Origin: Candidatus Micrarchaeota archaeon | Lineage (GTDB): Archaea; Micrarchaeota; Micrarchaeia; Anstonellales; Bilamarchaeaceae | Direction: 5' to 3' | Length of the DNA: 64,000 bases | NCBI GenBank assembly: GCA_040757035.1 | Contig: JBFLYM010000002.1 | Coordinates: forward strand, 4,300 to 68,299 | Made by a program: the position numbers and the translations under genes | Shown here: piece by piece, positions 3,261-63,126 of the stretch | Layout: every line of letters starts with the position of its first letter | Position numbering within the stretch: the stretch's first letter is position 1 | Notes under the pieces: generated by a model | Databases searched by the model: none | Told to the model about the DNA's origin: nothing | What the model saw: only the letters and a program-made list of their open reading frames with translations

Positions 3261-3358
3261 ATATACTCAACCAACTAAGTTTTTCCGATTTTGTTTTTTA
3301 GGTTTTATCTCGATTGGTTGAGTATATGCGATCCACGTTTTTTTAGTGGATCGGTATA
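3261..3358. repeat. 98-bp nested-hairpin intergenic repeat, copy A (family R1)
   Basis: Near-identical (1 mismatch) to the reverse complement of 12794-12891 and highly similar to 51748-51845. Stem 1 is atactcaaccaa/ttggttgagtat. Stem 2 is cgatccac/gtggatcg around a T-rich loop. It supplies the C-terminal 27 codons and stop of the upstream decarboxylase ORF. Confidence 0.9.
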
Positions 3359-5966: not shown

Positions 5967-6082
5967 GATAGATTATTAGAAAACAAATTTAAAAAGTTTT
6001 CTATTATGATAGATAACATTAAGTTGGACTAGTATATTTATAATTTGCGCTGTGATATTTCAGTGAGAGTTTGGTCGGGTAG

Positions 6083-6772
6083 TTGATAATGGTAACCGTA
6101 GCACATGTAGTATCAAAGCTTATAAGAATGGAGCCAATAATTGAGGACGCGCTTGCAAAGGATTTATTCAATTATTCAAAATTAGCCACGTATTTTCATT
6201 CTAAAGTTGAAAAAGAGATGAATAAACCGATCAAACTTTCAGCAATAATCATGGCAATAGCGCGCGCATCAGAAAAAATCAGGCAGGAATATCACAGGCA
6301 AGCGCATAAACTTTATTTTGCGCAAATAGAACTCAGCGTGCGTTCTGGTCTTGCGGAAATAACAATACAAAAATCCACATCATGTTTTAATAAAATCACT
6401 GAACTTTACAATATTGTTGATCTTTCTGCAGGGGATATTCTAAACATCAACTTGGGCGGAAGCGAAGTTTCAATAGTATATACTGCGCACTATATGAACG
6501 AATTCAAAAAAGCGCTTGAGGATGAGAATATAAAATTAGAGATTAGCGGTCTTGCTGAAATATCGGTGCGCTTTCCGAAAGATTGTTTATACGAACCTGG
6601 TTTTATTTACGCGATAACAAGACAATTTGCGTGGTATTCAATAAATATAGTTGAGATAATTTCTACTTTAAGCGAGCTTATATTAGTAATAAAAAATGAG
6701 GATACCACACGAGCATATAGCGCGCTTCAAGAACTTTTTTCGCAAAGTTCGCAACAGAGTTCGCAAAAATAA
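6083..6772 (+). CDS. hypothetical protein (possibly ACT-like regulatory domains)
   Basis: 229-aa ORF with good coding periodicity. No recognisable catalytic motif. Confidence 0.4.
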   Translation: MIMVTVAHVVSKLIRMEPIIEDALAKDLFNYSKLATYFHSKVEKEMNKPIKLSAIIMAIARASEKIRQEYHRQAHKLYFAQIELSVRSGLAEITIQKSTSCFNKITELYNIVDLSAGDILNINLGGSEVSIVYTAHYMNEFKKALEDENIKLEISGLAEISVRFPKDCLYEPGFIYAITRQFAWYSINIVEIISTLSELILVIKNEDTTRAYSALQELFSQSSQQSSQK

Positions 6773-12806: not shown

Positions 12807-12891
12807 TAAAAAAACGTGGATCGCATATACTCAACCAATCGAGATAAAACCTAAAAAACAAAACCGGAAAAACTTAGTTGGTTGAGTATAT
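12794..12891. repeat. 98-bp nested-hairpin repeat, copy B (family R1, opposite orientation to copy A)
   Basis: Reverse complement differs from 3261-3358 at one base. Confidence 0.9.
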
Positions 12892-21648: not shown

Positions 21649-22899
21649 TTATCTCGACATCCACTTCCAAGCTGGTTCAATTACTATTCTTTTCTTATCT
21701 ATTTCTAATTTATCTTCTTGATCGAGCGTTATTATTATTCCTTCTTTCAAATTGTATCTATCTAATGCTTCCAAAAGCCCGCCCAGCTCCCGATCTTTAT
21801 TCTCATCTCCAACCTTAAAACAAACCTGCACTGCGAAAATTATCTTGTTGGCATCTTTGACCAGGAAATCGCATTCGCGCTTGCCTTTAAAATAATAAAT
21901 ATTTCTATATTTTTTTCTGAGATGCACATAAACAAGGTTTTCCAATAGTCTTCCCTTATCTTCAGATAGCGAAGTTGAGTTTATTCTTGATAATCCGTTG
22001 TCTATGGAGTATAATTTTTTTGGATTTACTAATTGTTTTCTCATTGAATAATCAAATCGAGGAACCGTAAACGCAAGATAACTATCTTCAAAAAACGAAA
22101 TGAAAGAAATAACACTATTGACCGAACCCAGTTCGAATATTTTCTTAAGAGAATTGTAGCTAAATTCCTTTCCAAAATTTGATAGAATGTACAGTGCCAT
22201 TTCATTTAAGGTTTTCAAATTCCTTATTTTGTGCCTTATAGATATATCTCTTGCGACAATATCGCCCAGCAAATGCCTGAGAACCTCGGGGTTTCGTTCT
22301 TTTAGATATTCCGGAAAGCCGCCGTTCCTTAGGTATTCCTCAAACGAATCCACGTCCGGATTCTGTTTCGTAAATTCTAAAAATTCAATATAAGAGAAGG
22401 GGTATAATTCATAAGTTAAGTGTCTGCCTGTCAAACGCGTTCCCAATTCTTTGCTTAGTAATGAAGCGTTGGAACCAGTTATAACAACATATTTTTTCTT
22501 TTCCAGGAGAGATCTTATATAGAGTTCCCATTTGTCCACGCTCTGTATCTCATCAAAAAAATAACAATTCTGTTCCCCTAATTCTTCTTTAAAAGCCTCA
22601 TCCAATCGCTGGAAGTCATTCAGTCCGAAACCAAATGCACGTGGGTCGTCGAAGTCGAAATAATAAAACGACTGATATTTCTTCATTAATTGGCGCATTA
22701 GTGTACTCTTGCCGCATCGTCTTATCCCAGAGATAATTATCGCAAAATTGGTAATTACTGGCATCTCTTTTAATTTTTCCCGTTCTACTCCATAATCCCG
22801 TTGTTTGAACTCTTTATTTTGGGATCGTACAATTTCCTTTAGAACATCCTTTAATATCATGGATGTAGTTTCTACATCTCTCTTTATAAATGTTTTCAT
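21649..22899 (-). CDS. AAA+ ATPase, COG1373 type (AAA_14 + DUF4143), paralog 3
   Basis: GIRRCGKST and FFDEIQ motifs. C-terminal RECDFLVKD. Ends PAWKWMSR. Confidence 0.75.
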   Translation of the reverse strand: MKTFIKRDVETTSMILKDVLKEIVRSQNKEFKQRDYGVEREKLKEMPVITNFAIIISGIRRCGKSTLMRQLMKKYQSFYYFDFDDPRAFGFGLNDFQRLDEAFKEELGEQNCYFFDEIQSVDKWELYIRSLLEKKKYVVITGSNASLLSKELGTRLTGRHLTYELYPFSYIEFLEFTKQNPDVDSFEEYLRNGGFPEYLKERNPEVLRHLLGDIVARDISIRHKIRNLKTLNEMALYILSNFGKEFSYNSLKKIFELGSVNSVISFISFFEDSYLAFTVPRFDYSMRKQLVNPKKLYSIDNGLSRINSTSLSEDKGRLLENLVYVHLRKKYRNIYYFKGKRECDFLVKDANKIIFAVQVCFKVGDENKDRELGGLLEALDRYNLKEGIIITLDQEDKLEIDKKRIVIEPAWKWMSR

Positions 22900-22953
22900 T
22901 GATAGTGCACACTATTGCTCATTGGCAATGAAATGGTGCTTACTTAATAATAT

Positions 22954-22995
22954 TCTTTTCCGATGCGATTAACCGCGCATGCAAATATTCCATTT
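22954..22995. repeat. 42-bp intergenic copy of an internal segment of the CN-hydrolase gene
   Basis: Exact 42/42 identity with 24514-24555 (minus strand encodes NGIFACAVNRIGKE). Together the two copies flank the ATPase gene 23020-24102 in direct orientation. Confidence 0.9.
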
Positions 22996-23019: not shown

Positions 23020-24102
23020 CTACAAACCCTGATCGCGTCTCACAGCCGAAAACTTCAAGGCTTCTTTTATAATTGGGTCTCCGAGATTGTATTTTCCCCC
23101 TTTTTCTTCTATGAACCCATATTCCTGCAGCTGATCAAGAAGATTGGAAAGCCTGCTATCTGGAATTGGTTGACCTGATTTCGCTATGATAAAATTTTTT
23201 ATTTCGTTCCATGAAAGCGGCTCTTGGCTGAGAGACGCCAATATAAACAGATAGCGCTCCTTTGCCGCGATTCTCATGTTTAGGAACTCCTTAAGTTCAG
23301 CCGCTATAATCTTTGAGCTGTCTTTTAGTGTTTTTGAAAGAGCAACTTCATGGAACAATTCCTGCCTATAAAAACCATAATAAGTAAGCCAGCCAATCAC
23401 ACCGTCAAGCTTATCAACCGCTGTTTCAATTTCATTTTCTCGAATATTTATTTTCAACTGAGCAAAACCGGTCCTTAAAAACGTGATAGAATCCTTGCGT
23501 TCCAGCCTCCTTAAATTTATCACTTTTTTTGGCCGCCCATACAGTAGGCTCCCGATCTCGGAGCCTATAAACTTGTCCAATATGCCTATTTCGGAACCGG
23601 CAAGTATGATTTTTATTCTTTTTAGTCTATCGTAGATGAAAGCCAAGAAACGGTCAAATCCTGAGGGTTTTAGAAGCTGAACTTCGTCAATAAAAAGGCA
23701 GAAAAAATCATTTCTATCCTCCATCATCTTATCAATTCTTTTTGCCAACTCGCTCAGGCCCTTTTCTTCCCTAAAGCTTAATTTTACATAAATATCCAGG
23801 CCTTCAAGATAGGATTTCGCTTTCTCGTACATGCTTATACTTCTTAGAAAATCGTAAAATGTCCTTCCAATATGTTCATAAACTGCTTTCCTCCCCTTCG
23901 CAATTTCCCTAGAATCGATAAAAAGCTTTGGATGTTTGATTTCGCTGTAAACTACATTCATTAAACTAGTCTTGCCTGTTCTTCGCAATCCGCGCAACAC
24001 TATGAGCCGCTGCTGTTCGAGTACCCTTTCTATTTCCGCACATTCCTTATCGAAACCGAACAAATCTTTTCTGCTCGTCTTTGGTGTGATGTCAAAGTAC
24101 AT
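23020..24102 (-). CDS. archaeal ATPase (Arch_ATPase/COG1672-like, with C-terminal wHTH)
   Basis: LRGLRRTGKTSL Walker A and LFIDEVQ Walker B. Architecture differs from the COG1373 paralogs. Confidence 0.65.
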   Translation of the reverse strand: MYFDITPKTSRKDLFGFDKECAEIERVLEQQRLIVLRGLRRTGKTSLMNVVYSEIKHPKLFIDSREIAKGRKAVYEHIGRTFYDFLRSISMYEKAKSYLEGLDIYVKLSFREEKGLSELAKRIDKMMEDRNDFFCLFIDEVQLLKPSGFDRFLAFIYDRLKRIKIILAGSEIGILDKFIGSEIGSLLYGRPKKVINLRRLERKDSITFLRTGFAQLKINIRENEIETAVDKLDGVIGWLTYYGFYRQELFHEVALSKTLKDSSKIIAAELKEFLNMRIAAKERYLFILASLSQEPLSWNEIKNFIIAKSGQPIPDSRLSNLLDQLQEYGFIEEKGGKYNLGDPIIKEALKFSAVRRDQGL

Positions 24103-24317: not shown

Positions 24318-24337
24318 CTCGATTTAGCGGCTCAGTA
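24318..24337. repeat. 20-bp motif cgatttagcggctcagtaaa (right boundary of the two-ATPase block)
   Basis: See 21497-21516. Preceded by a local tandem gctaaatc x2. Confidence 0.7.
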
Positions 24338-25205
24338 AATGAGTATAACATTCAGATCTGCGATTATTGAGGAATTGCCAGCCGTTTCTTATTTTTTTAC
24401 ACATGGTTAAATCAACAACCGCAATAGAAGTGGTTTCGTTTCTACCAGCGCGCTTTATTATTTTGCCAAACGCATCGCATACGAACGAACCACCCCAAAA
24501 AGTTATTCTATCTTCTTTTCCGATGCGATTAACCGCGCATGCAAATATTCCATTTGCAATACAATGTCCGCGCATTACATTTTCCCACGCGCTTTTCCAA
24601 TTACCTTCGGTTTGTTTTATTCCTTTTATCGTACCTATTGCGGTGGGATAAAATATGATGTCCGCTTTCATAAGCGCGCTTATTCTTGCGGCTTCTGGAA
24701 ACCATTGGTCATAGCATATAAGTACGCCAATATTTCCATAATTTGTTTTGAACACTTTGAATTCTTCTCCGGGCGCAAAATAGTCCTTTTCCCAATAGCA
24801 TTCATCATATGGGATGTGAACTTTGCGGTATTTTCCTATTATGTTTCCGTTCTGGTCAAAAATTATAGAAGTGTTATATATTCTTTCGCCCGCTTTTTCG
24901 CATACCGAACCGCCTACGAGTATTATATTGTTATCACGCGCCGCTTTCGCAAGCGCATCTATAATTCTTTCAAAATTATCAGTGTATTCCGCGGTATATT
25001 TCGCGCGCTCATTTGTTTTTTTATATTGTGCGAAATATTTTGAAGCGAAAAGTTCAGGGAGACAAACAATGTTTGCGCCTTTTTTTGAGGCCATTGCGAT
25101 TTGTTTTACAGTACGCGCCAAATTTTCAGTAACGCTGTTGGACATACGCATTTGTATTAACCCTATCTTTGTCTTTCTTTTAGTTAACTCTAAGCGTTTG
25201 ATCAT
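24324..25205 (-). CDS. aguB: carbon-nitrogen hydrolase (N-carbamoylputrescine amidase-like)
   Basis: E-K-C triad context with PELF, RKVHIP and GVLICYDQWFPE. ORF opens at 25277 but the start is probably MIKRLELTK at 25205. Confidence 0.7.
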   Translation of the reverse strand: MIKRLELTKRKTKIGLIQMRMSNSVTENLARTVKQIAMASKKGANIVCLPELFASKYFAQYKKTNERAKYTAEYTDNFERIIDALAKAARDNNIILVGGSVCEKAGERIYNTSIIFDQNGNIIGKYRKVHIPYDECYWEKDYFAPGEEFKVFKTNYGNIGVLICYDQWFPEAARISALMKADIIFYPTAIGTIKGIKQTEGNWKSAWENVMRGHCIANGIFACAVNRIGKEDRITFWGGSFVCDAFGKIIKRAGRNETTSIAVVDLTMCKKIRNGWQFLNNRRSECYTHLLSR

Positions 25206-25380
25206 ACAAATCCGCATATTTTCTCTTAAGCTCCTCAAAAAATTATTTTCATAATAGTTTATAAGGCTTCCGCACATTCCCTTCCATTCCTTGCTGTAGT
25301 GAGCAACCCTATCCTCTTTTAAGATAGGATTATTTTTCTACTCCTTATCTGTTCTATAATGATTCTCAGTTTATCATTAC

Positions 25381-43964: not shown

Positions 43965-44651
43965 TTATTCCTTCGCTGAAGTGTGTAGTATGTTCAAAAG
44001 TTTTTCCCTATCCATGTACCCCTCATATTTTTTATTATTAACAATAATCGCTGGCACTCGCGTAACATTTTGCATTCTAATAAACATTTTGACAGGAGGG
44101 CTGTCTACATGTATATCAAATGCATAAACCGTAATATTAATCTTTGAACGTATTTGATCTATTATAATTCCCTGATCAACCCGTGCATCATAGTTTTCAT
44201 TTGAATAGAAATAGAGAAGGATGGTATGCGTTGCATTGCATTTTTTCTGAGTTTTTTCTAATAAAAGATAGTTTCTAAGCTGAAGTAGATTGTAGCTTGC
44301 CTTGAATCTCATTACTTCTGAATCCATCTTTCCTTTTTGATTTTCCATAAAATCTATTTTTTTCCCAAACTCTATTGCTTCTTCACCAAATTTGTTTAAC
44401 TGCTCCTTATAAAGCTCGCATACAAATTCATCGCTATAATTCATAAGAAACATAACCTCCAGAGCATAATCACTAACCCTCAGTTTTTCGTATTCATCCT
44501 TAATCTGTGAGATTGCTGAAAAAGCAATCTGCCATCCAATGAATATTCCAAGTAGAAATAGAATGCTCGCAATGATGAATGCGGTTATATAAATTGAGAT
44601 ATTTATCTTCCTTTCCATAGCTCTTGCCTTCCAATCATTTTCATTATACAT
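43965..44651 (-). CDS. membrane-anchored hypothetical protein
   Basis: Single N-terminal TM helix and a soluble domain with a lone CNATHTILLY motif. Confidence 0.35.
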   Translation of the reverse strand: MYNENDWKARAMERKINISIYITAFIIASILFLLGIFIGWQIAFSAISQIKDEYEKLRVSDYALEVMFLMNYSDEFVCELYKEQLNKFGEEAIEFGKKIDFMENQKGKMDSEVMRFKASYNLLQLRNYLLLEKTQKKCNATHTILLYFYSNENYDARVDQGIIIDQIRSKINITVYAFDIHVDSPPVKMFIRMQNVTRVPAIIVNNKKYEGYMDREKLLNILHTSAKE

Positions 44652-45814
44652 TTTCTAGTAATAATATATAACCAGAAAAATATTAAAAGAAAGGAGAATA
44701 CCATATAGGAGATGAAAAATACTACTGGGTTCTGCTCGTTAAACTGTCTTGAAATCAAATATAATACGAAAAAGATTAATAATGCTACTATAAAAAACAA
44801 GCCCAGATCGTATCCTTGAAGGTAAAACAGGTCAATGGAAAAGGATGGTAGACCAGCAAGATAGCCTGAATAAAGATATCTGTAGAGCGTATGAGTAGCA
44901 TTGGAAAAAGTATAGACGAATATGAATAAACCGAGGAATAAAAGTATGAGTCTCATTGGAAACATCAAGACTCCAAAATCGCCATATTTTTTAGAACATA
45001 GAAACCTATATCTATATGCATTTTCTAAAAAACCAGTATACCATCTGATTCTCTGTTTTAATAATTTCTGAATATTAACTGGTGATACCGTATGGACCCT
45101 CGTATTATATGAACTTTTTATCTTGTACTGCGCACTTTGGATTCTTAACGCTATCTCGGTATCCTCTGTAATGTTATTTTCATCAAAATAACCTATTTTT
45201 TCAAATATGCTTGCCTTATATACAGTAAAGGGACCCGGAGTTACCATAATCGCATCAAGAAAGGATAGAATTTTTGTGAAAAACGCAGAAACAAGGTATT
45301 CTATATATTGCATACTCTGAATAATATTTTCTGGTTCATGAACCTTTAAGACAAGCACCACGGCAGCTACTTTCTCATCCTCTTCAAAATAACCTAACAT
45401 ATAATTCAGGGCATTGGATTCAACAAAAGAATCCGCATCCAATGTTGCTATGAATTCACCCTTTGCCTTTTTTATTCCAATATTCACAGAATTTGCCTTT
45501 CCTGTATTTTTCTTGTTGATTAATACAACTTCCTTAAAAGTTTTTACAAACTCTGCGGTTTTATCAGTACTGCCATCGTTTATAACTATTATTTCAAGCT
45601 TTTCTTTGGGATAATTCAGCTTAAGTACCGATTCAATTGTTTTAGAAATTGTCTTTTCTTCATTATAAGCGGGTATAATTATACTAACCATCGGATTTCG
45701 CTTTGGAGATGGATCTGACAGATTCTGTATATTCTTAAAATAAATAAGCAGATAGAATACAATACTATATAATGATAAAAAATAGAATAGATACATAAAA
45801 AATACAAAGGACAT
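44603..45814 (-). CDS. family 2 glycosyltransferase with C-terminal TM region
   Basis: SIIIPAYNEE...VINDGSTD...DADS (DxD) motifs, QRIRWYTG motif, and flanking TM helices. Confidence 0.75.
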   Translation of the reverse strand: MSFVFFMYLFYFLSLYSIVFYLLIYFKNIQNLSDPSPKRNPMVSIIIPAYNEEKTISKTIESVLKLNYPKEKLEIIVINDGSTDKTAEFVKTFKEVVLINKKNTGKANSVNIGIKKAKGEFIATLDADSFVESNALNYMLGYFEEDEKVAAVVLVLKVHEPENIIQSMQYIEYLVSAFFTKILSFLDAIMVTPGPFTVYKASIFEKIGYFDENNITEDTEIALRIQSAQYKIKSSYNTRVHTVSPVNIQKLLKQRIRWYTGFLENAYRYRFLCSKKYGDFGVLMFPMRLILLFLGLFIFVYTFSNATHTLYRYLYSGYLAGLPSFSIDLFYLQGYDLGLFFIVALLIFFVLYLISRQFNEQNPVVFFISYMVFSFLLIFFWLYIITRKCIMKMIGRQELWKGR

Positions 45815-45837: not shown

Positions 45838-46644
45838 TTAAACTTCATTTTTAATTATCGGTTTCGGAACAATAGTACCAAGTGATGAACGTATATCTTC
45901 AGTATGTGCTGTTTGTACGGCTTCTATATTAGCACGTATTATGGCCTCTATATCATCGTTATTCAATCCATTTTTCTTCATATCCCTAATCAATTCAACA
46001 AAATCCGCTGCATTCTCTTTTTTCTTTTCTTTGTTTTCCTCGCTTTCATTTGCAGTTATAATGTCTATAACTTTGGAATTATCTTTCTCTTCTATTATTT
46101 TATTTACTATATTATAAGCTTGATCGAGCATAGAAGGACTAAGCTTTTGAAGAAGATTTTGCATAATAATATTTTGCGTGTTTTTAATAATTCGATCAAC
46201 TTCCATTCTGATTCTATCGAATTCGCGTTCGTAGCCGTGGTCGATTGCGAAATCTTGCAGTTGCTTCATTGTACGAATATTATTCCAATTATCTAGGAGG
46301 GATTGTTGTTTTTCAGGGCTTGCTATTTTATAGATCCAACGCTTAGCAAGGTCAACCCCAATAGATTCGGAAATATCATTTATTACCTTGTCAGTTAATT
46401 TAATTGTTTTTAAATAAGAAACTAATTCTTTAGATACCTCGTCCTTTTCCTTTTTTGATAGTAGAGATATGCATAATTTATTATATAAATCTTTTATATT
46501 ATTTTTTTGATCATCGGTCAGAGTTTTTTCTTTCTGTATAATATTTATAATGTTTTCAACGTCACTCTTTACGCATTCCTGAGGAAATTGATCTTGAATC
46601 CGCTTCTTACTGTTATCAGCTCCAACGCTTATTAGACTGTTCAT
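45838..46644 (-). CDS. hypothetical protein
   Basis: 268 aa, helical and charged. Its 3'-proximal 85 bp (45971-46053) is duplicated at 47655-47739. Confidence 0.4.
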   Translation of the reverse strand: MNSLISVGADNSKKRIQDQFPQECVKSDVENIINIIQKEKTLTDDQKNNIKDLYNKLCISLLSKKEKDEVSKELVSYLKTIKLTDKVINDISESIGVDLAKRWIYKIASPEKQQSLLDNWNNIRTMKQLQDFAIDHGYEREFDRIRMEVDRIIKNTQNIIMQNLLQKLSPSMLDQAYNIVNKIIEEKDNSKVIDIITANESEENKEKKKENAADFVELIRDMKKNGLNNDDIEAIIRANIEAVQTAHTEDIRSSLGTIVPKPIIKNEV

Positions 46645-46695: not shown

Positions 46696-47634
46696 TTACT
46701 TCGTTAGTTTTGCTAGACACGTATTAGAACCTATAATTGGGAGAGCGTATTCAGAATTTTTAGATTGAGAAACGATAATTAGAACAAATTGCATAGAACT
46801 ATTGCAATCACGTTTTGCTAACTCATAATCTTGTTCATCACATACGATGATATATTTTGAATTATTTATATCTGTTATAATTACTTTTGGTAATTTTTTT
46901 ATAGGTAGGTAAGGGTCGCGAGTTCCATCTTCACATGTTCTTCCATCTAAATAAATTATTGTACCCTCAATTTTCTTCTCTTTGTAATTAGGTTGAAATA
47001 TCTCAATCATTTCAGGTGAAACAGCAACAGTGTACCATATAGGTCCAAGTTTAAATGCATAAAATTCACATTTCAGATTATCTTTACCATAAGTTGGAAA
47101 AACATTATAACCAAAATTCACGTGCGCCCACCCCTTAGGGACATAATATAACATAGGACACACAATCCGAGAAGGTAAGTTTAGAAACCAACCATTAGTC
47201 TTTTTAAAATCTACCTGCTGGCCCCTGGTTGCCTTAGGATCATAATTAAAGCGTTGTATATTTGGATTAAGTTTCATCTCTTTTTCAGCATTTTCTAGCT
47301 CTGAAAATGGAATTGTCTGTAGTTCTTTTGCACACGCAAGCGGAATTTTAAACATACCTAGAATTTTGTCAACTGGAGTCGTATTTGTTTTTTGATTTTG
47401 TGGTAGAACTTGCTCAATTCCAGGTTTTTTGTTGTTATCTAGGGGGTTTTTAGTTTGAGTATTATACAGTGCGGGTCCAGATAATGGACTTATTAAAGAT
47501 GCCACCAATAAGGAACTTGCTAACTTTTTTGCTATTTCTTTTTTTCTTTGTATTTTCGGAGGTGTAATCTTCTCCACTTTTTTTTCATGTCCTACCATAA
47601 TCTTATTTATGAGACAAAAAATATATAAAACCAT
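46696..47634 (-). CDS. secreted hypothetical protein
   Basis: Signal-peptide-like KKLASSLLVASLISPLSGPALY and several Cys in the mature part. Confidence 0.4.
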   Translation of the reverse strand: MVLYIFCLINKIMVGHEKKVEKITPPKIQRKKEIAKKLASSLLVASLISPLSGPALYNTQTKNPLDNNKKPGIEQVLPQNQKTNTTPVDKILGMFKIPLACAKELQTIPFSELENAEKEMKLNPNIQRFNYDPKATRGQQVDFKKTNGWFLNLPSRIVCPMLYYVPKGWAHVNFGYNVFPTYGKDNLKCEFYAFKLGPIWYTVAVSPEMIEIFQPNYKEKKIEGTIIYLDGRTCEDGTRDPYLPIKKLPKVIITDINNSKYIIVCDEQDYELAKRDCNSSMQFVLIIVSQSKNSEYALPIIGSNTCLAKLTK

Positions 47635-47739
47635 AGGTTCGTTCGTAACAGTTCGTTTTTCTTCATATCCTTAATCAATTCAACAAAATCCGCTGCATTC
47701 TCTTTTTTCTTTTCTTTGTTTTCGTCGCTTTCATTTGCA

Positions 47740-47787
47740 TTCTGGCAATTGTGGCATAGTAGCTGTTTGCCGGTATTTGCCAATATT
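47740..47787. repeat. 48-bp direct repeat, left copy, flanking the AlbA_2 gene
   Basis: ttctggcaattgtggcatagtagctgtttgccggtatttgccaatatt matches 49120-49168 with 3 mismatches. Internally palindromic (tggcaa/ttgcca, ggca/tgcc). Confidence 0.85.
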
Positions 47788-47815
47788 TAAAAATACTTAG
47801 TATTAAAAATATATC

Positions 47816-49120
47816 ATGAAGCTAACCGAATCTCAGCATGCTGAATTTAAGGAAAGTCTTGCTAATCTTGATGCTATTGTAATTAGTGTGGTAGCCTTTG
47901 CGAATAACGGTGGCGGTAAAATATATATTGGAATAAAGGATGATGGAACAATAAAGGGTATTGATGTCGGAAAAAATACAATTGAAAATCTGGCTGCTGT
48001 AATCACAAAAAATACTGAGACAGCAATACTGCCAAGGATTTATATTGAAGGAATTGAAAAAAAAATCATAATAGTCGTTGAAGTTGAAGAAAGCTCGGCC
48101 AAACCTCATTTTTATCGTAAAATTGCATATAAAAGGGTTGGAAAATCCAATATTCAAATGGACATTTTAGAAATAAAACAAATGATCTTAGATCAATCTG
48201 AACGTAGTTTTGATGAAAGCCTTTTTGAGTTTGATTTATCAGAAATTAATACCTCTGTTTTCAATCGGTTCCTGGAAAAATGTAAGCAGAGCGGTAGATT
48301 AAACGTCAAAGAAGATGCGAGTTTAGAAGATCATATTGAAAAGTTGGGCGCATTAAAAGAAAGAAAGGTAAAATTAGGATTTTTACTAATGTTTGCTCAA
48401 AACCCAACCCATTTTCTTCCTCATTTTGGGGTAAAACTTGCAAAAATATCTTCACAAACATTTTCAATTGGTTCGCTTGAACGCAGTATATTTTATACCG
48501 AATCAATATTCAGAGTGATAGATGAGATAGTATTTGAAATAGTCAAAGAACTACCTAAAAGAGTGTACTTAGATGGCTCCAAACGTATAGAAGAACCTAT
48601 AATTCCAACTTCAGCAATTAGAGAATTTGTAGCCAATGCTTTGGTTCATTGTGATTATAGGATTGCATCATCTATTTCGATTTTGCTTACCCCAACTTGT
48701 TTAGAAATATCCAACCCAGGCAGATTGATGGGTTTGAAAATCCAGGATCTTTACAAAAAACACCGCTCAATACTTCGTAATCCATTTCTTGCCAGATTAA
48801 TGTTCCTTTCAGGAGATATTGAAGAATGGGGATCTGGAATTGAAAATGCAAATATAGCTGTACTAAAATCTGGCCTAAGTTTGCCACAATTCAATGTTAA
48901 TTCTGGTTTTTTCAGCGTACGAATAAATTTTGGTACTTCTCAAATTTCTGCTTCGGATAAAATTATCAAAATGCTCAAAGCAGGTCCATTAAGTAGTAAA
49001 CAAATAGCCAAAAAACTAGATATTGCAGACCGAACCGTGAGGGCGGAATTAAAGAAACTTGTGGATTTGGAAGCAATAAAAAAACAGCGAAAAGGTCGCA
49101 AAATTACCTATAAAATTTGA
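47816..49120 (+). CDS. AlbA_2 (Schlafen-like) + HATPase_c_4 + C-terminal HTH protein (putative DNA-binding/regulatory ATP-binding protein)
   Basis: N-terminal ESQHAEFKESL...AFANNGGGKIYIGIKDDGTIKGIDVG matches the AlbA_2 domain signature. C-terminal KQIAKKLDIADRTVRAELKKL is an HTH. Confidence 0.65.
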   Translation: MKLTESQHAEFKESLANLDAIVISVVAFANNGGGKIYIGIKDDGTIKGIDVGKNTIENLAAVITKNTETAILPRIYIEGIEKKIIIVVEVEESSAKPHFYRKIAYKRVGKSNIQMDILEIKQMILDQSERSFDESLFEFDLSEINTSVFNRFLEKCKQSGRLNVKEDASLEDHIEKLGALKERKVKLGFLLMFAQNPTHFLPHFGVKLAKISSQTFSIGSLERSIFYTESIFRVIDEIVFEIVKELPKRVYLDGSKRIEEPIIPTSAIREFVANALVHCDYRIASSISILLTPTCLEISNPGRLMGLKIQDLYKKHRSILRNPFLARLMFLSGDIEEWGSGIENANIAVLKSGLSLPQFNVNSGFFSVRINFGTSQISASDKIIKMLKAGPLSSKQIAKKLDIADRTVRAELKKLVDLEAIKKQRKGRKITYKI

Positions 49121-49168
49121 TTCTGGCAATTGTGGCATAATAGTTGTTTGCCAGTATTTGCCAATATT
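49120..49168. repeat. 48-bp direct repeat, right copy
   Basis: See 47740-47787. Begins at the stop codon of the 47816-49120 gene. Confidence 0.85.
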
Positions 49169-49173
49169 CAGAT

Positions 49174-50418
49174 TTATGAGAGCCGTTTTTTATAATCAGA
49201 ATATCCAAATTTTCGCACTATGCGCAAGTTTTCTTTACCGTTTAGTTTATGCGGATTGTAAATAGCAATTGAAGGATGCCTTACACCATTAAACATTGTT
49301 GTTTTCACCATGGAGTAATGCGCCATATCCAGAAAAACCAGCTTATCTCCAACACCGAGAGGTTTTGCAAACGAATAATCCCCGATTATATCTCCAGCAA
49401 GGCAGGTCACTCCAGTTAATTGATAGGTATATTTTTGTTCGCCTGGTTTTCCAGCCCCAATAATTTCTGGGCGATAGGGCATCGCAAGCACATCAGGCAT
49501 ATGAGCTTCTGCAGAAGTGTCCAATATCGCAATTTTCATTTTGCTTTTGATTATTACATCTAAAACGCTTGCTACGAGCACACCCGCATTAAGCGCAACC
49601 GCTTCGCCTGGTTCAAGATAAACTTGCACAGAATATTTTTTCTTAAAATCGTTTATTGTTTTGCATAACAAATCAACATCGTAATCATTCCTTGTGATAT
49701 GATGACCGCCACCAAAATTTATCCATTTCATTTCAGAAATATAATTTTTGTACAATTTTTCAAACGATTTCAAAACGCGCACAAGTACATCTGAATTTTG
49801 TTCGCATAACGCATGAAAATGCAGTCCGTCTATTTTTGAAGCAATCTCGTCCAAATCCTCGCATTCGAGGTCTTCTGGTCGCACACCGAGCCTTGAACCT
49901 GGAACGCATGGATTGTAAAGCCTTGTTTTTATCTCAGAATATCCTGGATTTACCCTGAGTCCAACTTCTATTTTTTTTCCCAATTTTTTTTCAGATTCGG
50001 TTATCGCATCGCGATATTTTTTCCATTGCGAAATTGAGTTGAAAATTATGCAATTAGAATAGCGAATTACTTCATCCATGTCGCGTTTAGAATAAGCCGG
50101 CGCAAATGTATGAACTTCTTTTCCAAATTCTTCTTTGCCGAGTCGCGCTTCAATCGCTCCGCTTGCGCACACGCCATCAAGATATTTTTTTATTAATGGA
50201 AAAGTGGAATGCATCGCAAATGCTTTCAGAGCAAGAAAAATTTTTGTATTTGTACGCTTCCGAACCGAACTCAAAATTTTCAAATTCTTTTTCAGCAAAT
50301 CTTCATTCACGATAAAGCATGGCGTTTCTATTTTATCTGTAATTTTTTTCGGGAAATTTTCTAATTCCCTGATATTGAACTTATCTGCGTTCATAGTTTC
50401 ATTCATAGTTTTATTCAT
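49174..50418 (-). CDS. nspC: carboxynorspermidine/carboxyspermidine decarboxylase (PLP-dependent)
   Basis: FLALKAFAM PLP-lysine motif, GGG..HHITRNDYD and the overall fold II decarboxylase layout of NspC. Confidence 0.75.
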   Translation of the reverse strand: MNKTMNETMNADKFNIRELENFPKKITDKIETPCFIVNEDLLKKNLKILSSVRKRTNTKIFLALKAFAMHSTFPLIKKYLDGVCASGAIEARLGKEEFGKEVHTFAPAYSKRDMDEVIRYSNCIIFNSISQWKKYRDAITESEKKLGKKIEVGLRVNPGYSEIKTRLYNPCVPGSRLGVRPEDLECEDLDEIASKIDGLHFHALCEQNSDVLVRVLKSFEKLYKNYISEMKWINFGGGHHITRNDYDVDLLCKTINDFKKKYSVQVYLEPGEAVALNAGVLVASVLDVIIKSKMKIAILDTSAEAHMPDVLAMPYRPEIIGAGKPGEQKYTYQLTGVTCLAGDIIGDYSFAKPLGVGDKLVFLDMAHYSMVKTTMFNGVRHPSIAIYNPHKLNGKENLRIVRKFGYSDYKKRLS

Positions 50419-51641
50419 TACAGAAGTTTTCCTTTGAACTCAATTTGCTGCCATTTGAGTCCATATTTATTAAGCGCTTCCATGAACATATCAGGATCCA
50501 ATTGTTCAACATTAAACACGCCTGCTCCTTTCACTTTCCATACGCCTTTGAGTACTAACATCGCACCTATCATTGCAGGAACTCCTGTAGTATAAGAGAC
50601 CGCTTGCGCCTGAACTTCTTTGTATGCTTCTGCGTGATCGCACATATTATAGATATACGTTTTCTTTTTTTTGCCGTCTTTGGTAATACCGTCAAATATA
50701 CATCCTATTACCGTTTTGCCAGTGTAGTTCACGCCAAGCGAAGCCGGATCAGGAAGTAGAGCCTTCAAGAATTTCAGCGGTACTATTTTTTTACCTTCAA
50801 AATCAATTTCATCTATTCGCGTCATCCCGATATTCTGAAGTACTCGCAGATGCGTTAAATAATTTTCAGAGAACGTCATCCAAAATCGTATGCGCTTCAA
50901 TCCGCGTATGTTTTTTATAAGCGATTCCAGTTCTTCATGATAAAGGAGATAACTTTCTTTTGGACCAACTACTGGATAATCGAACGAAAAATGCACGCTT
51001 TTAGGATTTAGTATTGGCGGTGTTTCAATCCATTTGCCGTTTTCCCAATGCTTTACTATTTGTGTGACTTCGCGAATATTTATTTCGGGATTAAAATTCG
51101 TTGCAAATGGGTGGCCATGACTACCGGCGTTGCAATCTAAAATATCTATGTTCGTTATCTCTTTATAGATATGCTTTTGCGCGTATGCACAAAAAACATT
51201 TGAAACACCTGGATCAAAACCACAACCAAGCACTGCAATTATTCCTCTTTTTTTGAATTTTTCTTGGTACGCCCATTGCCAACTATACTCAAAATGCGCT
51301 TCATCAGGTGGCTCATAATTTGCCGTGTCCAGATAGTGCACTCCTGTTTCAAGGCATGCGTCCATTATAGTTAAATCTTGGTAAGGAAGCGCGACGTTGA
51401 TTACTATGTCCGGTTTGAATTTATTTATAAGTTTGATTAATTCGGGAACTTTATCAGCGTCAACTTGCGCGGTTTTTATTTTTCTACCTGTATTTTTTTC
51501 TATTTCGGCAGCTATTTTATCGCATTTTTCCACAGTTCTGCTGGCGATGCAGATTTCGGTAAAAACTTCAGGAACCTGCACGCATTTTTTTGCAACAACA
51601 TTTCCAACTCCGCCTGCACCAATAATTAATACTCTTCCCAT
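50418..51641 (-). CDS. carboxynorspermidine synthase/dehydrogenase (saccharopine dehydrogenase family)
   Basis: MGRVLIIGAGGVGNVVAKK NAD(P) fold and saccharopine-DH C-terminal domain. Overlaps the nspC start. Confidence 0.75.
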   Translation of the reverse strand: MGRVLIIGAGGVGNVVAKKCVQVPEVFTEICIASRTVEKCDKIAAEIEKNTGRKIKTAQVDADKVPELIKLINKFKPDIVINVALPYQDLTIMDACLETGVHYLDTANYEPPDEAHFEYSWQWAYQEKFKKRGIIAVLGCGFDPGVSNVFCAYAQKHIYKEITNIDILDCNAGSHGHPFATNFNPEINIREVTQIVKHWENGKWIETPPILNPKSVHFSFDYPVVGPKESYLLYHEELESLIKNIRGLKRIRFWMTFSENYLTHLRVLQNIGMTRIDEIDFEGKKIVPLKFLKALLPDPASLGVNYTGKTVIGCIFDGITKDGKKKKTYIYNMCDHAEAYKEVQAQAVSYTTGVPAMIGAMLVLKGVWKVKGAGVFNVEQLDPDMFMEALNKYGLKWQQIEFKGKLL

Positions 51642-51747
51642 ATTTTGTTCACCAGAATTAATATTTGCGATTTAACTTGTTAATTCGCATATAATTCGCA
51701 TATGAAAGTTTTTAAACAGGATAGATAAAAAAGATATATAAAAATAA

Positions 51748-51845
51748 TATACCGATCCACTAAAAAAACGTGGATCGCATATACGCAACCTGTCGAGATA
51801 AAACCTAAAAAACAAAACCGGAAAAACTTAGTGGGTTGCGTATAT
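51748..51845. repeat. 98-bp nested-hairpin repeat, copy C (family R1) with compensatory stem substitutions
   Basis: Same architecture as copies A and B, but the outer stem is acgcaacc/ggttgcgt instead of actcaacc/ggttgagt. A paired T>G / A>C change preserves the hairpin. Confidence 0.85.
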
Positions 51846-54031: not shown

Positions 54032-54101
54032 TATCCAATGCTTTTTTGATAAATCTCGAACGGAAAATTTTTCGTCGCGAAGAGAGATATGGAGAAAAAA
54101 T

Positions 54102-54153
54102 TTGTTCAGACTTACGACCATTTTCGACTATTTTTGGTCGGTTTTCTGAACAA
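54102..54153. repeat. 52-bp palindromic direct repeat, left copy, flanking ATPase paralog 5
   Basis: ttgttcagacttacgaccattttcgactatttttggtcggttttctgaacaa. Nested inverted repeats ttgttcaga/tctgaacaa and cgacca/tggtcg. Matches 55381-55432 with 1 mismatch. Confidence 0.9.
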
Positions 54154-55342
54154 AACCAAGAACAATAAGCGCATCGTCGTTCATGACAACTCCTTTCTTT
54201 CCTTCGAATTGAGAGGTTCCTTTGGAACTTCCACCTATTTCGAACAAAACAGTTTTCTCACCAATTTTAACTAGATAATCAGGAACTTTTCTCATTTTTT
54301 TAGGTATGAAAATTGGAAATCCGAGTTCGGAAATGTGAAAGACAAAATATTCTTCTCGCAGTGCACCCAATTCCGCTTCGCGCATGAGTTGGTCTGCAAA
54401 AGCCGAACGTAGATTCGGATGCGAAAAAATCAGTTTAACCGTTGCCTTTGCTTTTGCTTTCGGGGAGTCTTCTTCTATATATCTTATTATCCCCAATTCG
54501 TACAACATGCGTGCGGCCTCATAAACCGTTGATTTTGCATATCCGCTCATTAAGGAGAATGAAGTATAACTAAATTCTCCTGGTTTGGATGATGCCAAAA
54601 AAGAAAGAAGTCGTTCTGCAACATCAACCTTGTTTTCACTAAGGCTGAATTCTGCGAGTGCGTCTTCGTATATCATTTTTTTCATGAGTCGGAATATCGC
54701 ATCTTTTGCCGAAATTCCAGACGGAAATCCGCCTAAATTCAAGTATGTTCGATAATGTTTTTCAATATCCGGATGAGCCGCAAGCCAGTGTATTGTATTT
54801 TTTTTATCCACTGCTTCTTCTAAACTGGCAGAATAATCCGCACAATCCAAAATGTAAACAAATTCGCGGAAAGTTAGCGGGGACAGGGGCATTTCGATTG
54901 CCCGACGCCCTAACGTTATCGCGCCTTTTTTCAACGCAGCTGTAGAAGACCCAGAAACTACAATCGTCAAATCAAAATTATCACAAATATTTTTCAGTTC
55001 GTTTATCCATCTCACGTATTGATGAATTTCGTCTATGAATATTATCTTGTATCCGTTTCTGTATAAATGCTCTATAGTATTATAAAGACCTTCGGATTTG
55101 ATTAGCACAGAATCTGCTGAAAAATAAAAAGATTCTTTATATTCGTCGAACAATTGAATAAGAAGAGTGGTTTTTCCAATTCCTCGTATTCCAGGAACGA
55201 TTATTACTGGTTTCTTCATATTTTGCCCTTTGAATTCCTCAATAAGGCGTTTTAGTTTCGGATATAATAAGCGCTTCCTATAATCCTTTACAAGTAAGGT
55301 ATTTTCCACGGCTACTCGATAGAGTTTTTCTATTTCGATCAT
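54128..55342 (-). CDS. AAA+ ATPase (COG1373-like), paralog 5
   Basis: GIRGIGKTTLL Walker A and FIDEIHQ Walker B. Last 8 codons and stop lie inside the left 52-bp repeat. Confidence 0.7.
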   Translation of the reverse strand: MIEIEKLYRVAVENTLLVKDYRKRLLYPKLKRLIEEFKGQNMKKPVIIVPGIRGIGKTTLLIQLFDEYKESFYFSADSVLIKSEGLYNTIEHLYRNGYKIIFIDEIHQYVRWINELKNICDNFDLTIVVSGSSTAALKKGAITLGRRAIEMPLSPLTFREFVYILDCADYSASLEEAVDKKNTIHWLAAHPDIEKHYRTYLNLGGFPSGISAKDAIFRLMKKMIYEDALAEFSLSENKVDVAERLLSFLASSKPGEFSYTSFSLMSGYAKSTVYEAARMLYELGIIRYIEEDSPKAKAKATVKLIFSHPNLRSAFADQLMREAELGALREEYFVFHISELGFPIFIPKKMRKVPDYLVKIGEKTVLFEIGGSSKGTSQFEGKKGVVMNDDALIVLGFVQKTDQK

Positions 55343-55380
55343 ATCAAAATATATACCGTATTTATTTTTAATTCTTTCTT

Positions 55381-55432
55381 TTGTTCAGACTTACGACCAT
55401 TTTCGGCTATTTTTGGTCGGTTTTCTGAACAA
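55381..55432. repeat. 52-bp palindromic direct repeat, right copy
   Basis: See 54102-54153. Confidence 0.9.
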
Positions 55433-55468
55433 ATGATTAGCTTTTCCGTTCGCAATAGATAAAAAATC

Positions 55469-57944: not shown

Positions 57945-58021
57945 AAAAATCAATGAATCCGCAAATAAATAAAAAGCTTCGCATTTCCGGATCATTTATA
58001 GAATTTGCGAAATTTCGGTAA

Positions 58022-62087: not shown

Positions 62088-62777
62088 TTAAGAAGTATAT
62101 AATGGGTCTTCTTCTTTGGTATAGGTCTCGTGAATTGTTTTCCATACTGCTCTTGCTTTCTTTTCACCAAGACCTTCAATTTTTAAAAAATCTTCCTCGC
62201 TCGCGCAAAAGAGCGCTTCCAAACTCCCAAAATGAATAAGCAGTTTTTTCGCCATACACGGACCTATCATCGGAAGCATCTCAACAACAGAGCGCTGGGT
62301 TTGCGCAAGGGTAAGCGATTTTCTTTTTGCGAATATTCTCATTTTTATTTTCTTCGCAAGTTGTTCGTGTTTCGCAATCGAATAAACAAGTTCGGCAGTG
62401 GATTTTTCATTTTTTGTGAAAAAAAGCGACGCGCCAAAATCTGTTATCACAGAAACATAAGCGCCCATAAGTGCTGCGCGACTAAGCGAATGTCCACTTG
62501 TTTTTTCGTTTCCCATTCCCTCTATTACAACTATTACATTTTCAAAATTTGCACGCAAATTCCGGAGTTGGGAAAAAAACCTGCCGTCCAATATAGATGC
62601 TTCAAAATCGCTGCGCGTTTTTCTTTCTACAATTGTTTTTTCAGAACAAACAAAATCTCCAACTTCAAGCATTTTCTCTTCTACTTCTGCACCGAATTCA
62701 GAGAGAAGATTCGCAAATCCGCGCTCGCGTTTATCAACTGCAATTTTTGCTTTTTGCTCTTGCATATACTCAGCCAA
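62088..62777 (-). CDS. short XPF/ERCC4-type structure-specific endonuclease with (HhH)2 domain
   Basis: GDFVCSEKTIVERKTRSDFEASILDGR contains the ERK/GDxn motif of the ERCC4 nuclease. C-terminal LEALFCASEEDFLKIEGLGEKKARAV is an HhH2. Confidence 0.55.
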   Translation of the reverse strand: MAEYMQEQKAKIAVDKRERGFANLLSEFGAEVEEKMLEVGDFVCSEKTIVERKTRSDFEASILDGRFFSQLRNLRANFENVIVVIEGMGNEKTSGHSLSRAALMGAYVSVITDFGASLFFTKNEKSTAELVYSIAKHEQLAKKIKMRIFAKRKSLTLAQTQRSVVEMLPMIGPCMAKKLLIHFGSLEALFCASEEDFLKIEGLGEKKARAVWKTIHETYTKEEDPLYTS

Positions 62778-63126
62778 TCAAATTACTCCGCTAACCAAAT
62801 TTTTCCGATCGTTTGCGAATCTTCAATATCATTTCTTCACTATCATTGGTTTTATATAGAGGCGATCAGACATGTTGGGACATGTTGGCTCATAAATCCC
62901 AGAAAAAATTTAAAAATTTTCCTGTGCGAAAAATTTTCCTGTGCGCAAAGCGGAAAGATGCGCAAAATAATTGTAAAATAGCAGCTTTCGGCTAAGTTTA
63001 ATCCGAAATGCGAAGCTTTTTATTTATTTGCGGATTTATTCCCATTAGACGAATATAGACAAATACCCTTTTTCTAAAAAGAGTAAGATCAAGAAAAAAA
63101 AGAGTAAGACTAAAAATGATGAAAAA

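Follow-up and report, generated by a model that had tools for sequence, protein, structure and literature searches.

Operators of ArsR/SmtB repressors and of the controller proteins of restriction-modification systems are made of repeated half-sites at helical spacing, and they overlap the core promoter from which the regulator itself is expressed. Integron cassettes are associated with attC sites and IntI, are promoterless and stand in arrays, and pdif modules are bounded by XerC/D-type 11-6-11 sites. Restriction-modification genes insert with a long target duplication (Nobusato 2000; Furuta 2010, PMC2853133); no archaeal case came out of the 2010 survey (PMC2853133).

For prokaryotic Schlafens (pSlfns), a role as anti-phage effectors has been shown only recently. 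Their HisKinase-HTH class makes up 19.2% of 5,930 pSlfns (Nat Microbiol 2026, PMC13056530) and lies outside the four architectures tested for defence in that paper, in which a term search found no mention of repeats or mobile elements. TrlG of Photorhabdus (PMC7554251) has the same domain order and belongs to an operon of three genes, in which the regulator, TrlR, is a separate protein. The gene described here has this order too, but it stands alone and is archaeal. It lies in a window of 64,000 nucleotides (the whole stretch of Micrarchaeota DNA that was analysed), where the following features were recorded.

45971..46054, minus strand: source copy of the gene fragment, within the intact ORFan gene 45838-46644
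47656..47739, minus strand: orphan 84-nt copy of codons 198-227 of ORF 45838-46644, 82/84 identical
47739..47787, plus strand: DR1, the upstream copy of a 49-nt repeat, whose 3' end runs into the TATA box
47743-47747, 47752-47756, 47768-47771 and 47778-47782: the four half-sites of DR1
47783..47796, plus strand: TATA-like box ATATTTAAAAATAC, read from the sequence, ~26 nt upstream of the ATG
47816..49120, plus strand: Schlafen/AlbA_2 gene for a 434-aa protein with a nuclease domain, a GHKL ATPase and an ArsR-like winged helix
49120..49168, plus strand: DR2, the downstream copy, which is the counterpart of the stop-codon array described below and occupies the 53-nt gap to the convergent nspC gene

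An earlier note on this DNA had assigned the gene to the AlbA_2/Schlafen-HATPase proteins, and Pfam matches bear this out for the N-terminal domain (SLFN_AlbA_2, PF04326, E 3.2e-22) and the middle domain (HATPase_c_4, E 1.7e-14). They also add a C-terminal helix-turn-helix (HTH), for which several families match residues 380-433 below their curated cut-offs. Thus, the order is SLFN_AlbA_2 with an E-x4-E-x-K motif, then HATPase_c_4/GHKL, then the HTH, as in TrlG and the HisKinase-HTH class. The catalytic motif, defined as E-x4-(E/D)-x-K (PMC13056530), is present as E5-x4-E10-x-K12 in the segment ESQHAEFKES; E10 and K12 do not vary among 22 homologues, and E5 is kept in at least 90% of them. A sequence search of the PDB gave no match. 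However, a fold search with the AlphaFold2 model (pLDDT 87.8) matched 3LMM, the N-domains of SLFN11/12/13/14, the SAMD9 tRNase and histidine-kinase cores. The C-terminus (~residues 378-434) forms an ArsR-like winged helix (wHTH) that superposes on the ArsR-family repressor CzrA with an rmsd of 0.8 Å. Judged by its sequence, the protein is a defence-type Schlafen, and its family shares with the HisKinase-HTH class the patchy distribution across genomes of a defence gene.

The two repeats are as the earlier note described them. Positions 47740-47787 and 49121-49168 are identical at 45 of 48 positions (46 of 49 when the shared A at 47739/49120 is counted), each copy is internally symmetric with the pattern TGGCA-N4-TGGCA-N11-TGCC(G/A)-N5-TGCCA, and the first base of DR2 is also the final base of the TGA stop codon (49118-49120). 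If one gap is allowed, a further 6 nt at the gene's end can be aligned (47733-47787 versus 49115-49168). The pattern amounts to four TGGCA half-sites per repeat, two direct and two inverted, spaced by 9-10 nt within each arm. When the window and its 68%-identical homologue L026 are taken together, the half-sites differ between the two copies at 0 of 19 positions versus 12 of 60 elsewhere, and in L026 alone this avoidance of mismatches has p = 0.007. The four half-sites are thus selectively conserved between the two copies. Directly after the last half-site of DR1, which ends with position 47782, comes the putative TATA-like box, which overlaps the last 5 nt of the repeat. Its distance of ~26 nt from the ATG implies a leaderless or short-leader mRNA.

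It had been conceivable that the 48-mer was a common intergenic motif. The 64-kb window contains only the two copies (≤3 mismatches), and 100 dinucleotide-preserving shuffles yielded none under the same limit. No solo copies were found in the window, the related nspC loci, the fetched flanks of family loci or viral contigs. A scan of GTDB species genomes for the four-half-site pattern produced 23 bacterial matches versus ~4 expected by chance, and no archaeal match, so that this collection does not cover the source genome.

The same layout recurs in homologues with 31-76% identity that reside in unrelated neighbourhoods: one repeat copy abuts the TATA box and the other starts at the stop codon. 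In addition to the window, five loci with both flanks available (L026, L028, L034, L040 and L041; 31-68% identity) carry a near-identical repeat pair at the same two positions beside different neighbours, and in L032 (76% identity) the downstream copy is seen. The upstream copy ends 2-6 nt before the TATA box in five loci, and its DR1-like position beside that box was found in L026, L034, L040 and L041. Neighbouring genes differ at every locus compared. Nucleotide homology marks the limits of the unit, because the blastn alignment between the window and L026 spans 47736-49163, exactly repeat to repeat, and homology to L032 ends at 49168. Relatives with a 73-75%-identical nspC have no Schlafen gene beside the nspC operon, which is conserved and is followed by a different gene in each relative. 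This comparison shows absence of the gene rather than a precise empty site, and the relatives' nspC loci contain no DR-like sequence.

Spacer positions are also nearly identical between the two copies in the window, L028, L034 and L041. For DR1 and DR2, this near-identity requires an additional process, either gene conversion or a recent duplication. Family genes stand in tandem, as twos or threes, at L058, L064, L092 and L106, which provides a route to repeat homogenisation. As a separate observation, an AAA_14 gene at 54128-55342 of the same window shows the same layout framed by palindromic repeats. The inner and outer arms of those repeats differ, and they resemble a structured recombination site more than four equal half-sites.

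The position of DR2 reflects a wider regularity. At least three exact copies of a 6-mer at an exact 11-nt period were found at the stop codon in 32 of 57 dereplicated lineages, and of these 32 arrays, 26 have their start between -16 and +6 relative to the stop. The same search returned 0 of 570 for shuffled sequences and at most 2 of ~195 for non-family ORFs. DR2 is the local form of this family-wide stop-codon array, which apparently has not been described before in either the archaeal or the bacterial relatives. Most bacterial relatives carry the array downstream only, followed by a gene of the same orientation in 32 of 37 loci. In these relatives, control by the array may be directed at the neighbour and not at its own gene.

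Sequence comparison also indicates that the lineage-specific motif co-varies with the recognition helix of the wHTH. Pairs of proteins that share a motif are 68% identical in the C-terminal domain versus 63% in the N-terminal part, whereas for non-sharing pairs these values are 33% and 51%; the pairs are phylogenetically non-independent, which inflates the p-values of this comparison. The recognition helix reads A(D/E)RT.RAEL in the three loci with TGGCA half-sites, and is different where the half-sites differ.

We consider it probable (about 0.6) that the repeats are operators of the encoded protein itself, and that they mark the ends of a compact single-gene module that has moved horizontally. 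DR1 and DR2 would be the cognate sites of the C-terminal ArsR-like winged helix, each offering four TGGCA half-sites in helical phase, of which two are direct and two inverted. An autoregulatory operator would look like this, with its half-sites repeated at helical spacing beside the gene's own core promoter. Because DR1 lies just upstream of the TATA box, its occupancy should control the gene's own promoter, and we infer autorepression of a potentially toxic nuclease. As best guesses, DR2 may loop with DR1, may serve as an insulator or a roadblock to transcription, or may capture newly made protein at its own gene. The unit of repeat, promoter, gene and repeat (~1.43 kb) would be self-contained and would have moved as a block, and the near-identity of positions that are not expected to be contacted would best fit recent duplication or unequal crossing-over between units.

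The earlier note had interpreted the layout as the signature of a single-gene insertion cassette. The self-contained module stands, given the repeat-to-repeat homology and the varying neighbours. The repeats as scars or by-products of insertion do not, as related repeats travel with the gene, their half-sites are conserved, the motif co-varies with the helix and the array is family-wide.

A second possibility, which we judge unlikely, is that the repeats serve mainly in mobility as recombination sites (attC, Xer-type pdif or subterminal-hairpin-like) that perhaps are also bound by protein. The recombinase would then be encoded elsewhere, or the Schlafen-GHKL protein would itself excise and insert the cassette. 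Unit boundaries that coincide with the outer repeat edges fit such a scheme, and the spacer near-identity in the window, L028, L034 and L041 looks as if both copies were regenerated with each move. Repeat pairs and flanking gene-fragment pairs have diverged to a similar extent (82% versus 76-79% in L026; 94% versus 95-98% in the window), which suggests one event per pair, and the unrelated AAA_14 gene has the same kind of frame. However, the scanned ORFs of the window showed no integrase, transposase or recombinase domain, and solo copies are missing from the places searched. The repeat runs from TTCTGGCAAT to TTTGCCAATATT, so that its ends have no AAC/GTT core and the attC-type RYYYAAC/GTTRRRY core is absent, and the gene stands alone with its own TATA box. 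In single-strand folding, DR1 does no better than shuffled sequences (z -0.5, -0.9), and DR2 has only a marginal advantage over them (z -1.8, -2.3). Most of the family, moreover, has three direct 11-nt repeats from which no hairpin can form, and which have the look of a protein-binding array.

The locus L056 bears on the same question. It is a contig of 2,020 nt with an exact terminal overlap of 127 nt, holding only the family gene and one small ORF. This contig may be a circle, as mobility by recombination would predict, or a chromosomal insertion flanked by a perfect duplication, which explains it equally well. Logan contigs were considered as evidence for circles and were set aside, since their ends are explained by assembly-graph structure.

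It is very unlikely that the repeats act as single-stranded hairpins, either as an RNA 3' stabiliser or terminator or as a DNA cruciform, instead of as duplex binding sites. Each copy is an imperfect palindrome, and in L028 the outer arms have changed jointly on both sides from TGGCA to CGGCA. The predicted stability, however, is weak and not significant, and no tRNA or Rfam match was found. DR1 lies upstream of the TATA box and therefore outside the gene's own transcript, and elsewhere in the family the direct repeats follow the 11-nt helical period of DNA.

Phased direct repeats adjoining the gene for a DNA-binding ATPase, together with the possible circularity of L056, might also suggest the iterons of a minimal integrated replicon with the gene product as its initiator. 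We find this highly improbable, as the fold of Schlafen nuclease, GHKL and wHTH is that of no known initiator and the loci are chromosomal, among housekeeping genes. A tblastn search of 72,556 plasmid records gave 30 weak matches at 23-31% identity (maximum 31.3%), none of them in Enterobacteriaceae.

Scarcely any weight can be given to the idea that the repeats are a functionless long target duplication left by insertion of the gene, even though such duplications are documented for restriction-modification systems. Flanking direct duplications do occur at 25 of 62 family loci versus ~7 of 156 other genes, a control from which AlbA_2 and AAA_14-type genes were removed, and copies of neighbouring-gene fragments flank many family loci (e.g. 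L026, L096, L094, L097 and L108). But repeats of the same family flank the orthologues in L026 and L032 in unrelated contexts, and so the repeat belongs to the element and not to the target. Both copies have half-sites under selection, and the repeats keep their place with respect to the TATA box and the stop codon.

The gene fragment to the left of DR1 is a separate matter. The earlier note had matched 47655-47739 to 45971-46053 (83/85); the copy is real, with limits of 47656-47739 and 45971-46054 and 82 of 84 positions identical, and a repeat search extends the match to 91 nt at 95%. It derives from the C-terminal third of the 268-codon ORF 45838-46644, but not from the 3' end itself, as it stops 126 nt before the stop codon. 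Among 5.8 billion proteins, this ORF has no homologue other than itself, and exact-protein look-ups of the two left-hand ORFs returned nothing on record. The fragment ends exactly at DR1, where a 6-7-nt microhomology, ATTTG(C)A, links it to the 3' terminus of the Schlafen gene. A target duplication would have its partner to the right of DR2, whereas the partner of this fragment is found 1.6 kb leftward, within an intact gene. Simple target duplication and Campbell-type insertion were both rejected as its origin on geometric grounds. The fragment is probably the footprint of illegitimate, microhomology-mediated recombination.

Although the source is a metagenome-assembled genome, there is practically no chance that the repeats or the fragment are an assembly artefact, because DR1, the gene and DR2 are identical in the product of a second assembler, fixed substitutions distinguish the copies, and the architecture recurs in six other loci from other samples. 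The second assembly, a Logan contig, equals window positions 47694-51732 exactly, from the right-hand portion of the fragment through DR1, the gene and DR2 and beyond, and contains all three differences between DR1 and DR2. The sample behind it is probably that of the genome, and so it counts as a second assembly and not as a second sample. It breaks inside the fragment, and hence the left junction at 47655/47656 rests on one assembly.

An array fixed in place at the stop codon suggests retention of the protein at its own locus, or its control from there. The lineage-specific array that co-varies with the HTH offers a testable DNA target for about one-fifth of prokaryotic Schlafens, and a simple sequence signature for finding and delimiting Schlafen-GHKL-wHTH genes. 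The data also indicate that these Schlafen genes, like those for AAA_14-type ATPases, move in blocks of a single gene, often with long duplications of neighbouring genes left behind, as has been described so far mainly for restriction-modification systems. A more speculative and rather doubtful extension is that Schlafen-GHKL-wHTH genes, and apparently AAA_14/ATPase_2-type orphan ATPase genes, are recombinase-less selfish modules of a single gene, whose product binds the phased repeats at its ends and is captured in cis at the stop-codon array. Such an array could act as a tether or sensor for a toxic effector, and it could also have a part in how the module is duplicated, excised and re-inserted, with long duplications of the flanking genes as a result.

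Compared with known mobile units, the element resembles integron attC cassettes and Acinetobacter pdif modules in being a single gene with imperfect-palindrome bounds in varied contexts. It differs in lacking an attC core, IntI and an XerC/D-type 11-6-11 site, in having its own promoter outside any array, and in carrying near-identical flanking sites that are specific to the gene's lineage. With restriction-modification insertions it shares a small defence gene without a mobility gene, direct repeats of more than 30 nt and copies of neighbour-gene fragments around many family loci, but DR1 and DR2 are borne by the element and the fragment in the window has no partner on the element's other side. 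With the operators of ArsR/SmtB-type repressors and of restriction-modification controller proteins, the repeats have in common half-sites at helical spacing, overlap with the core promoter of their own gene and a site sequence that varies by lineage in step with the recognition helix. Unlike those operators, there is a second full copy at the 3' end of the gene that starts at the stop codon, most of the Schlafen family has a triple 11-nt direct array only at the stop, and the regulator is here fused to its effector.

The Schlafen gene and the two 49-nt direct repeats that frame it (DR1 upstream, DR2 downstream) constitute a discrete, portable single-gene module. The repeats are most likely functional parts of this module, its own predicted operators, rather than insertion scars. 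Thus, the single-gene cassette proposed in the earlier note survives as a portable unit defined by homology from repeat to repeat, whereas a reading of the repeats as insertion scars does not. The features concerned are listed below.

47739-47787 (+), DR1, upstream 49-nt repeat copy
47816-49120 (+), Schlafen gene, 434-aa product with SLFN_AlbA_2, HATPase_c_4 and C-terminal HTH
49120-49168 (+), DR2, downstream 49-nt repeat copy
49174-50418, convergent gene of the carboxynorspermidine dehydrogenase/decarboxylase operon to the right of the Schlafen gene

DR1 and DR2 agree at 46/49 positions (45/48 over the 48-mer of the earlier note), and a second assembly, a Logan contig probably derived from the same sample, reproduces 47694-51732 exactly, including the three differences between the copies, which bears out the reported direct repeats. 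The placement of the right repeat at the stop codon is likewise correct, as the first base of DR2 is the final base of TGA (49118-49120), and DR2 occupies the 53-nt gap ahead of the convergent gene. A search for further copies at ≤3 mismatches recovered exactly two in the 64-kb window, both framing the gene, and 0 in 100 dinucleotide-preserving shuffles. Each copy follows the consensus TGGCA-N4-TGGCA-N11-TGCC(G/A)-N5-TGCCA, comprising two direct and two inverted half-sites spaced 9-10 nt within each arm.

The window sequence is archaeal and the region is chromosomal, carrying mostly housekeeping genes; Pus10, ELP3, an L10P-type ribosomal protein, pyruvoyl arginine decarboxylase and archaeal prepilin peptidase are present, and no integrase or transposase domains were found among the window ORFs scanned. 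Two lineage-specific ORFs lie to the left of the Schlafen gene. A search of 5.8 billion proteins for homologues of ORF 45838-46644 returned the ORF itself and no other. For ORF 46696-47634, the more likely start is ATG 47598 rather than its first ATG (47634), which is overlapped by a strong TATA-like box, TTTTATATATTTTTT (minus strand, within 47598-47640), ~25-30 nt upstream of ATG 47598. Relatives whose nspC (the convergent neighbour) is 73-75% identical lack the Schlafen gene at this locus, and their nspC loci yield no precise empty site because synteny past the operon is lost.

Among 53 window genes, such a repeat pair accompanies only the Schlafen gene (repeat-pair score 51.5) and an AAA_14 gene at 54128-55342 (41.5), all others scoring ≤13. 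This second repeat-framed gene lends some weight to the idea that the repeats serve primarily in recombination, which we nevertheless consider unlikely, as no recombinase was found among the window ORFs scanned, no solo site in the window or the flanks retrieved, and no attC-type core in the repeats. The AAA_14 and Schlafen genes belong to different families and share one layout. The AAA_14 repeats are 54 nt long, palindromic and 98% identical (54101-54154 and 55380-55433), with nested inverted arms (outer TTTGTTCAGA...TCTGAACAAA, inner CGACCA...TGGTCG). Copy one extends over the stop codon, 27 of its nucleotides lying in the CDS, and copy two occupies -91 to -38 relative to the start, ending 38 nt upstream of it. 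The 64 kb contain five orphan ATPase genes of the AAA_14/DUF4143 or ATPase_2 type, scattered among the housekeeping genes:

4704-5966, orphan ATPase gene
10086-11381, orphan ATPase gene
21649-22899, orphan ATPase gene
23020-24102 (-), ATPase_2/AAA_14 gene with an MCM-type winged helix
54128-55342 (-), AAA_14-type gene, matching PADLOC candidate PDC-S01

All three orphan ATPase genes scanned match this candidate defence family. The gene at 23020-24102 is flanked by 46-nt direct repeats (98%; 22950-22995 and 24510-24555), the right-hand one ~400 nt upstream of the gene and within the 3' portion of a nitrilase-family ORF (24324-25277); this arrangement looks like a long target duplication. A 98-nt repeat present in three copies (94-99%; 3261-3359, inverted; 12793-12891; 51748-51845) has two internal hairpins, GATCCAC...GTGGATC and ATATACTCAACC...GGTTGAGTATAT, with paired changes in the second stem of copy three. 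It has no tRNA or Rfam matches; a small non-coding RNA and a miniature mobile element are both possible identities. In addition, a 41-nt inverted repeat pair (95%; 57952-57992 and 63001-63040), 5 kb apart, brackets the stretch from ribosomal protein L1 to ORF 62088-62777.

The interpretation of DR1 and DR2 as functional parts of the module draws first on homologues from other samples, in which the same frame recurs amid other neighbours.

Repeat frames around homologues of the Schlafen gene at metagenome loci
L026, protein 68% identical, 49-nt pair (82%), neighbours AAA ATPase genes
L028, protein 51% identical, 52-nt pair (98%), neighbours giant beta-helix proteins
L034, protein 38% identical, 47-nt pair, TGACA half-sites
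L041, protein 35% identical, 44-nt pair, GGAAC half-sites
L040, protein 31% identical, weaker pair, CTAAAC half-sites
L032, protein 76% identical, downstream copy only (contig cut upstream), neighbour AsnC-type regulator

One copy begins at or overlaps the stop codon in every tabulated locus, and the upstream copy ends 2-6 nt ahead of a TATA-like box, ~26-30 nt upstream of the ATG, except in L028, where it is farther from the ATG. Blastn aligns window 47736-49163 to L026 4442-5866 with no alignment outside, and nucleotide homology with L032 stops at 49168. Because these limits coincide with the repeats, the conserved unit runs exactly from repeat to repeat, and plain target duplication is therefore ruled out.

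The repeats are also under selection. All mismatches within the pairs of L026 (nine) and the window (three) fall outside the 19 half-site positions (p = 0.007 for L026 alone). The recognition helices at the three TGGCA loci are closely similar (IADRTVRAEL, MADRTARAEL and IAERTTRAEL), and at L028, L034, L041 and L040 both helix and half-sites differ. Locus pairs that share a motif are 68% identical in the C-terminal domain and 63% in the N-terminal domain, versus 33% and 51% for pairs that do not. Motif similarity thus tracks C-terminal identity more than the rest of the protein (partial Spearman 0.19), an effect size that weighs more than its p-value because the pairs are phylogenetically non-independent.

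At the C-terminus of the encoded protein, residues 380-433 match several HTH families. SLFN_AlbA_2 (E 3e-22) and HATPase_c_4 (E 2e-14) are matched elsewhere, and the N-terminal catalytic motif E-x4-E-x-K reads ESQHAEFKES, with E10 and K12 invariant across 22 homologues. An AlphaFold2 model (pLDDT 87.8) used for fold matching resembles the uncharacterised structure 3LMM from end to end, the SLFN11/12/13/14 and SAMD9 tRNase fold in its N-domain, histidine-kinase catalytic cores in its middle domain and the ArsR-family repressor CzrA at its C-terminus (rmsd 0.8 A). This is the HisKinase-HTH architecture. A 2026 defence study (PMC13056530) assigns 19.2% of prokaryotic Schlafens to it, and it is not among the architectures assayed there; in a term search of the same article, neither repeats nor mobile elements came up. 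Loss of a characterised relative, TrlG of Photorhabdus, lifts temperature restriction of growth (PMC7554251). The protein family is already known; the repeat frame and the family-wide stop-codon array appear undescribed in the literature searched.

We surveyed 80 metagenome loci with relatives 28-51% identical, dereplicated to 59 gene clusters. At least three exact copies of a 6-mer with a period of exactly 11 nt occur in 32/57 evaluable lineages, none of which has arrays of period 9, 10 or 12, and 0/570 shuffled sequences carry 11-nt-period arrays. Array starts fall at -16 to +6 relative to the stop codon in 26 of the 32. Positives among control ORFs are mostly tandem family paralogues, unrelated ORFs contributing at most 2 of ~195. 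The 11-mers are lineage-specific (e.g. TTTCGGATAAA, TATGCCAACTT, CGTGCAATTTG, TGATGCAAAAA) and accompany the gene into different contexts, always directly after the stop. An 11-nt period corresponds to the DNA helical repeat, and direct triple repeats lack hairpin capacity; together with the covariation, these properties point to duplex DNA to which the winged helix of the same protein would bind. DR2 is the Micrarchaeota-clade form of the stop-codon array and DR1 an extra copy at the promoter.

Architecture, conservation and covariation support the view that the module carries putative binding sites for its own product at both ends. Occupancy of DR1 beside the TATA box would control the gene's own transcription, most plausibly by repressing a nuclease that may be toxic. 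The 3' array might loop to DR1, act as a roadblock to read-through or capture the protein beside its gene. A role as operator of the next gene is excluded in the window, L026 and L032 because that gene is convergent, but neighbour control is possible elsewhere in the family, since the next gene is co-directional in 32/37 loci.

Flanking direct duplications surround family genes at 25/62 loci; in a control set, 13 of the 20 duplication positives are themselves AlbA_2 or AAA_14/ATPase_2-type genes, leaving ~7/156 for other genes. DR1 and DR2 are near-identical even at spacer positions, although spacers differ freely between orthologues, which calls for a recent duplication or unequal crossing-over as the probable source of the spacer identity. 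Units do duplicate, as family genes standing two or three in tandem show. Divergent Schlafen-GHKL paralogues are arrayed in twos or threes at L058 (1045-4066), L064, L092 (1322-5973) and L106, and at L058, L064 and L092 the stop codon of the paralogue is followed by an 11-12-nt repeat array of its own. L056 (1-2020), a metagenome contig of 2,020 nt with an exact 127-nt terminal overlap, holds a Schlafen-GHKL gene, a 3 x 11-nt array, one small secreted-protein ORF and nothing else; this represents either a circle of 1.9 kb or an insert in the chromosome with perfect duplications on its two sides. Family genes often reside in or beside cell-surface polysaccharide genes (L051, L062, L069, L084, L096, L063, L076; window 44603-45814), including UDP-GlcNAc 2-epimerase, DegT aminotransferase, NAD-epimerases and GT2 glycosyltransferase, and fragments of such genes are duplicated on either side of some family genes.

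The window has a duplication of its own to the left of DR1. The earlier note described a copy of a neighbour's 3' coding region; the copy is real (47656-47739 matches 45971-46054 at 82/84 positions, or 91 nt at 95% in an extended repeat search), but it represents codons 198-227 of the 268-codon ORF 45838-46644, a segment internal to the C-terminal third rather than the 3' end. Its left junction is supported by one assembly, because the Logan contig breaks inside the fragment. At the junction with DR1, a 6-7-nt microhomology, ATTTG(C)A, is common to 46048-46054 and the gene end (49115-49120), and we read the fragment as a putative footprint of illegitimate recombination.

At L026, the left repeat adjoins a decayed copy (76-79%) of the final ~220 nt of the gene on the right, and more copies of that gene's family are interspersed with two ATPase genes. 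Copies, full and partial, of a single unannotated gene family (12-234, 1724-2632, 4203-4450 and 5890-6338) alternate with AAA_14/DUF4143, ATPase_2/DUF234 and Schlafen genes, three cassette-like singles. The pattern suggests a series of insertions, each duplicating a portion of one and the same target gene. These duplications resemble the insertion with long target duplication of restriction-modification genes (PMC2853133), whereas the geometry of the window fragment differs from the L026 pattern, its partner lying inside an intact gene 1.6 kb leftward.
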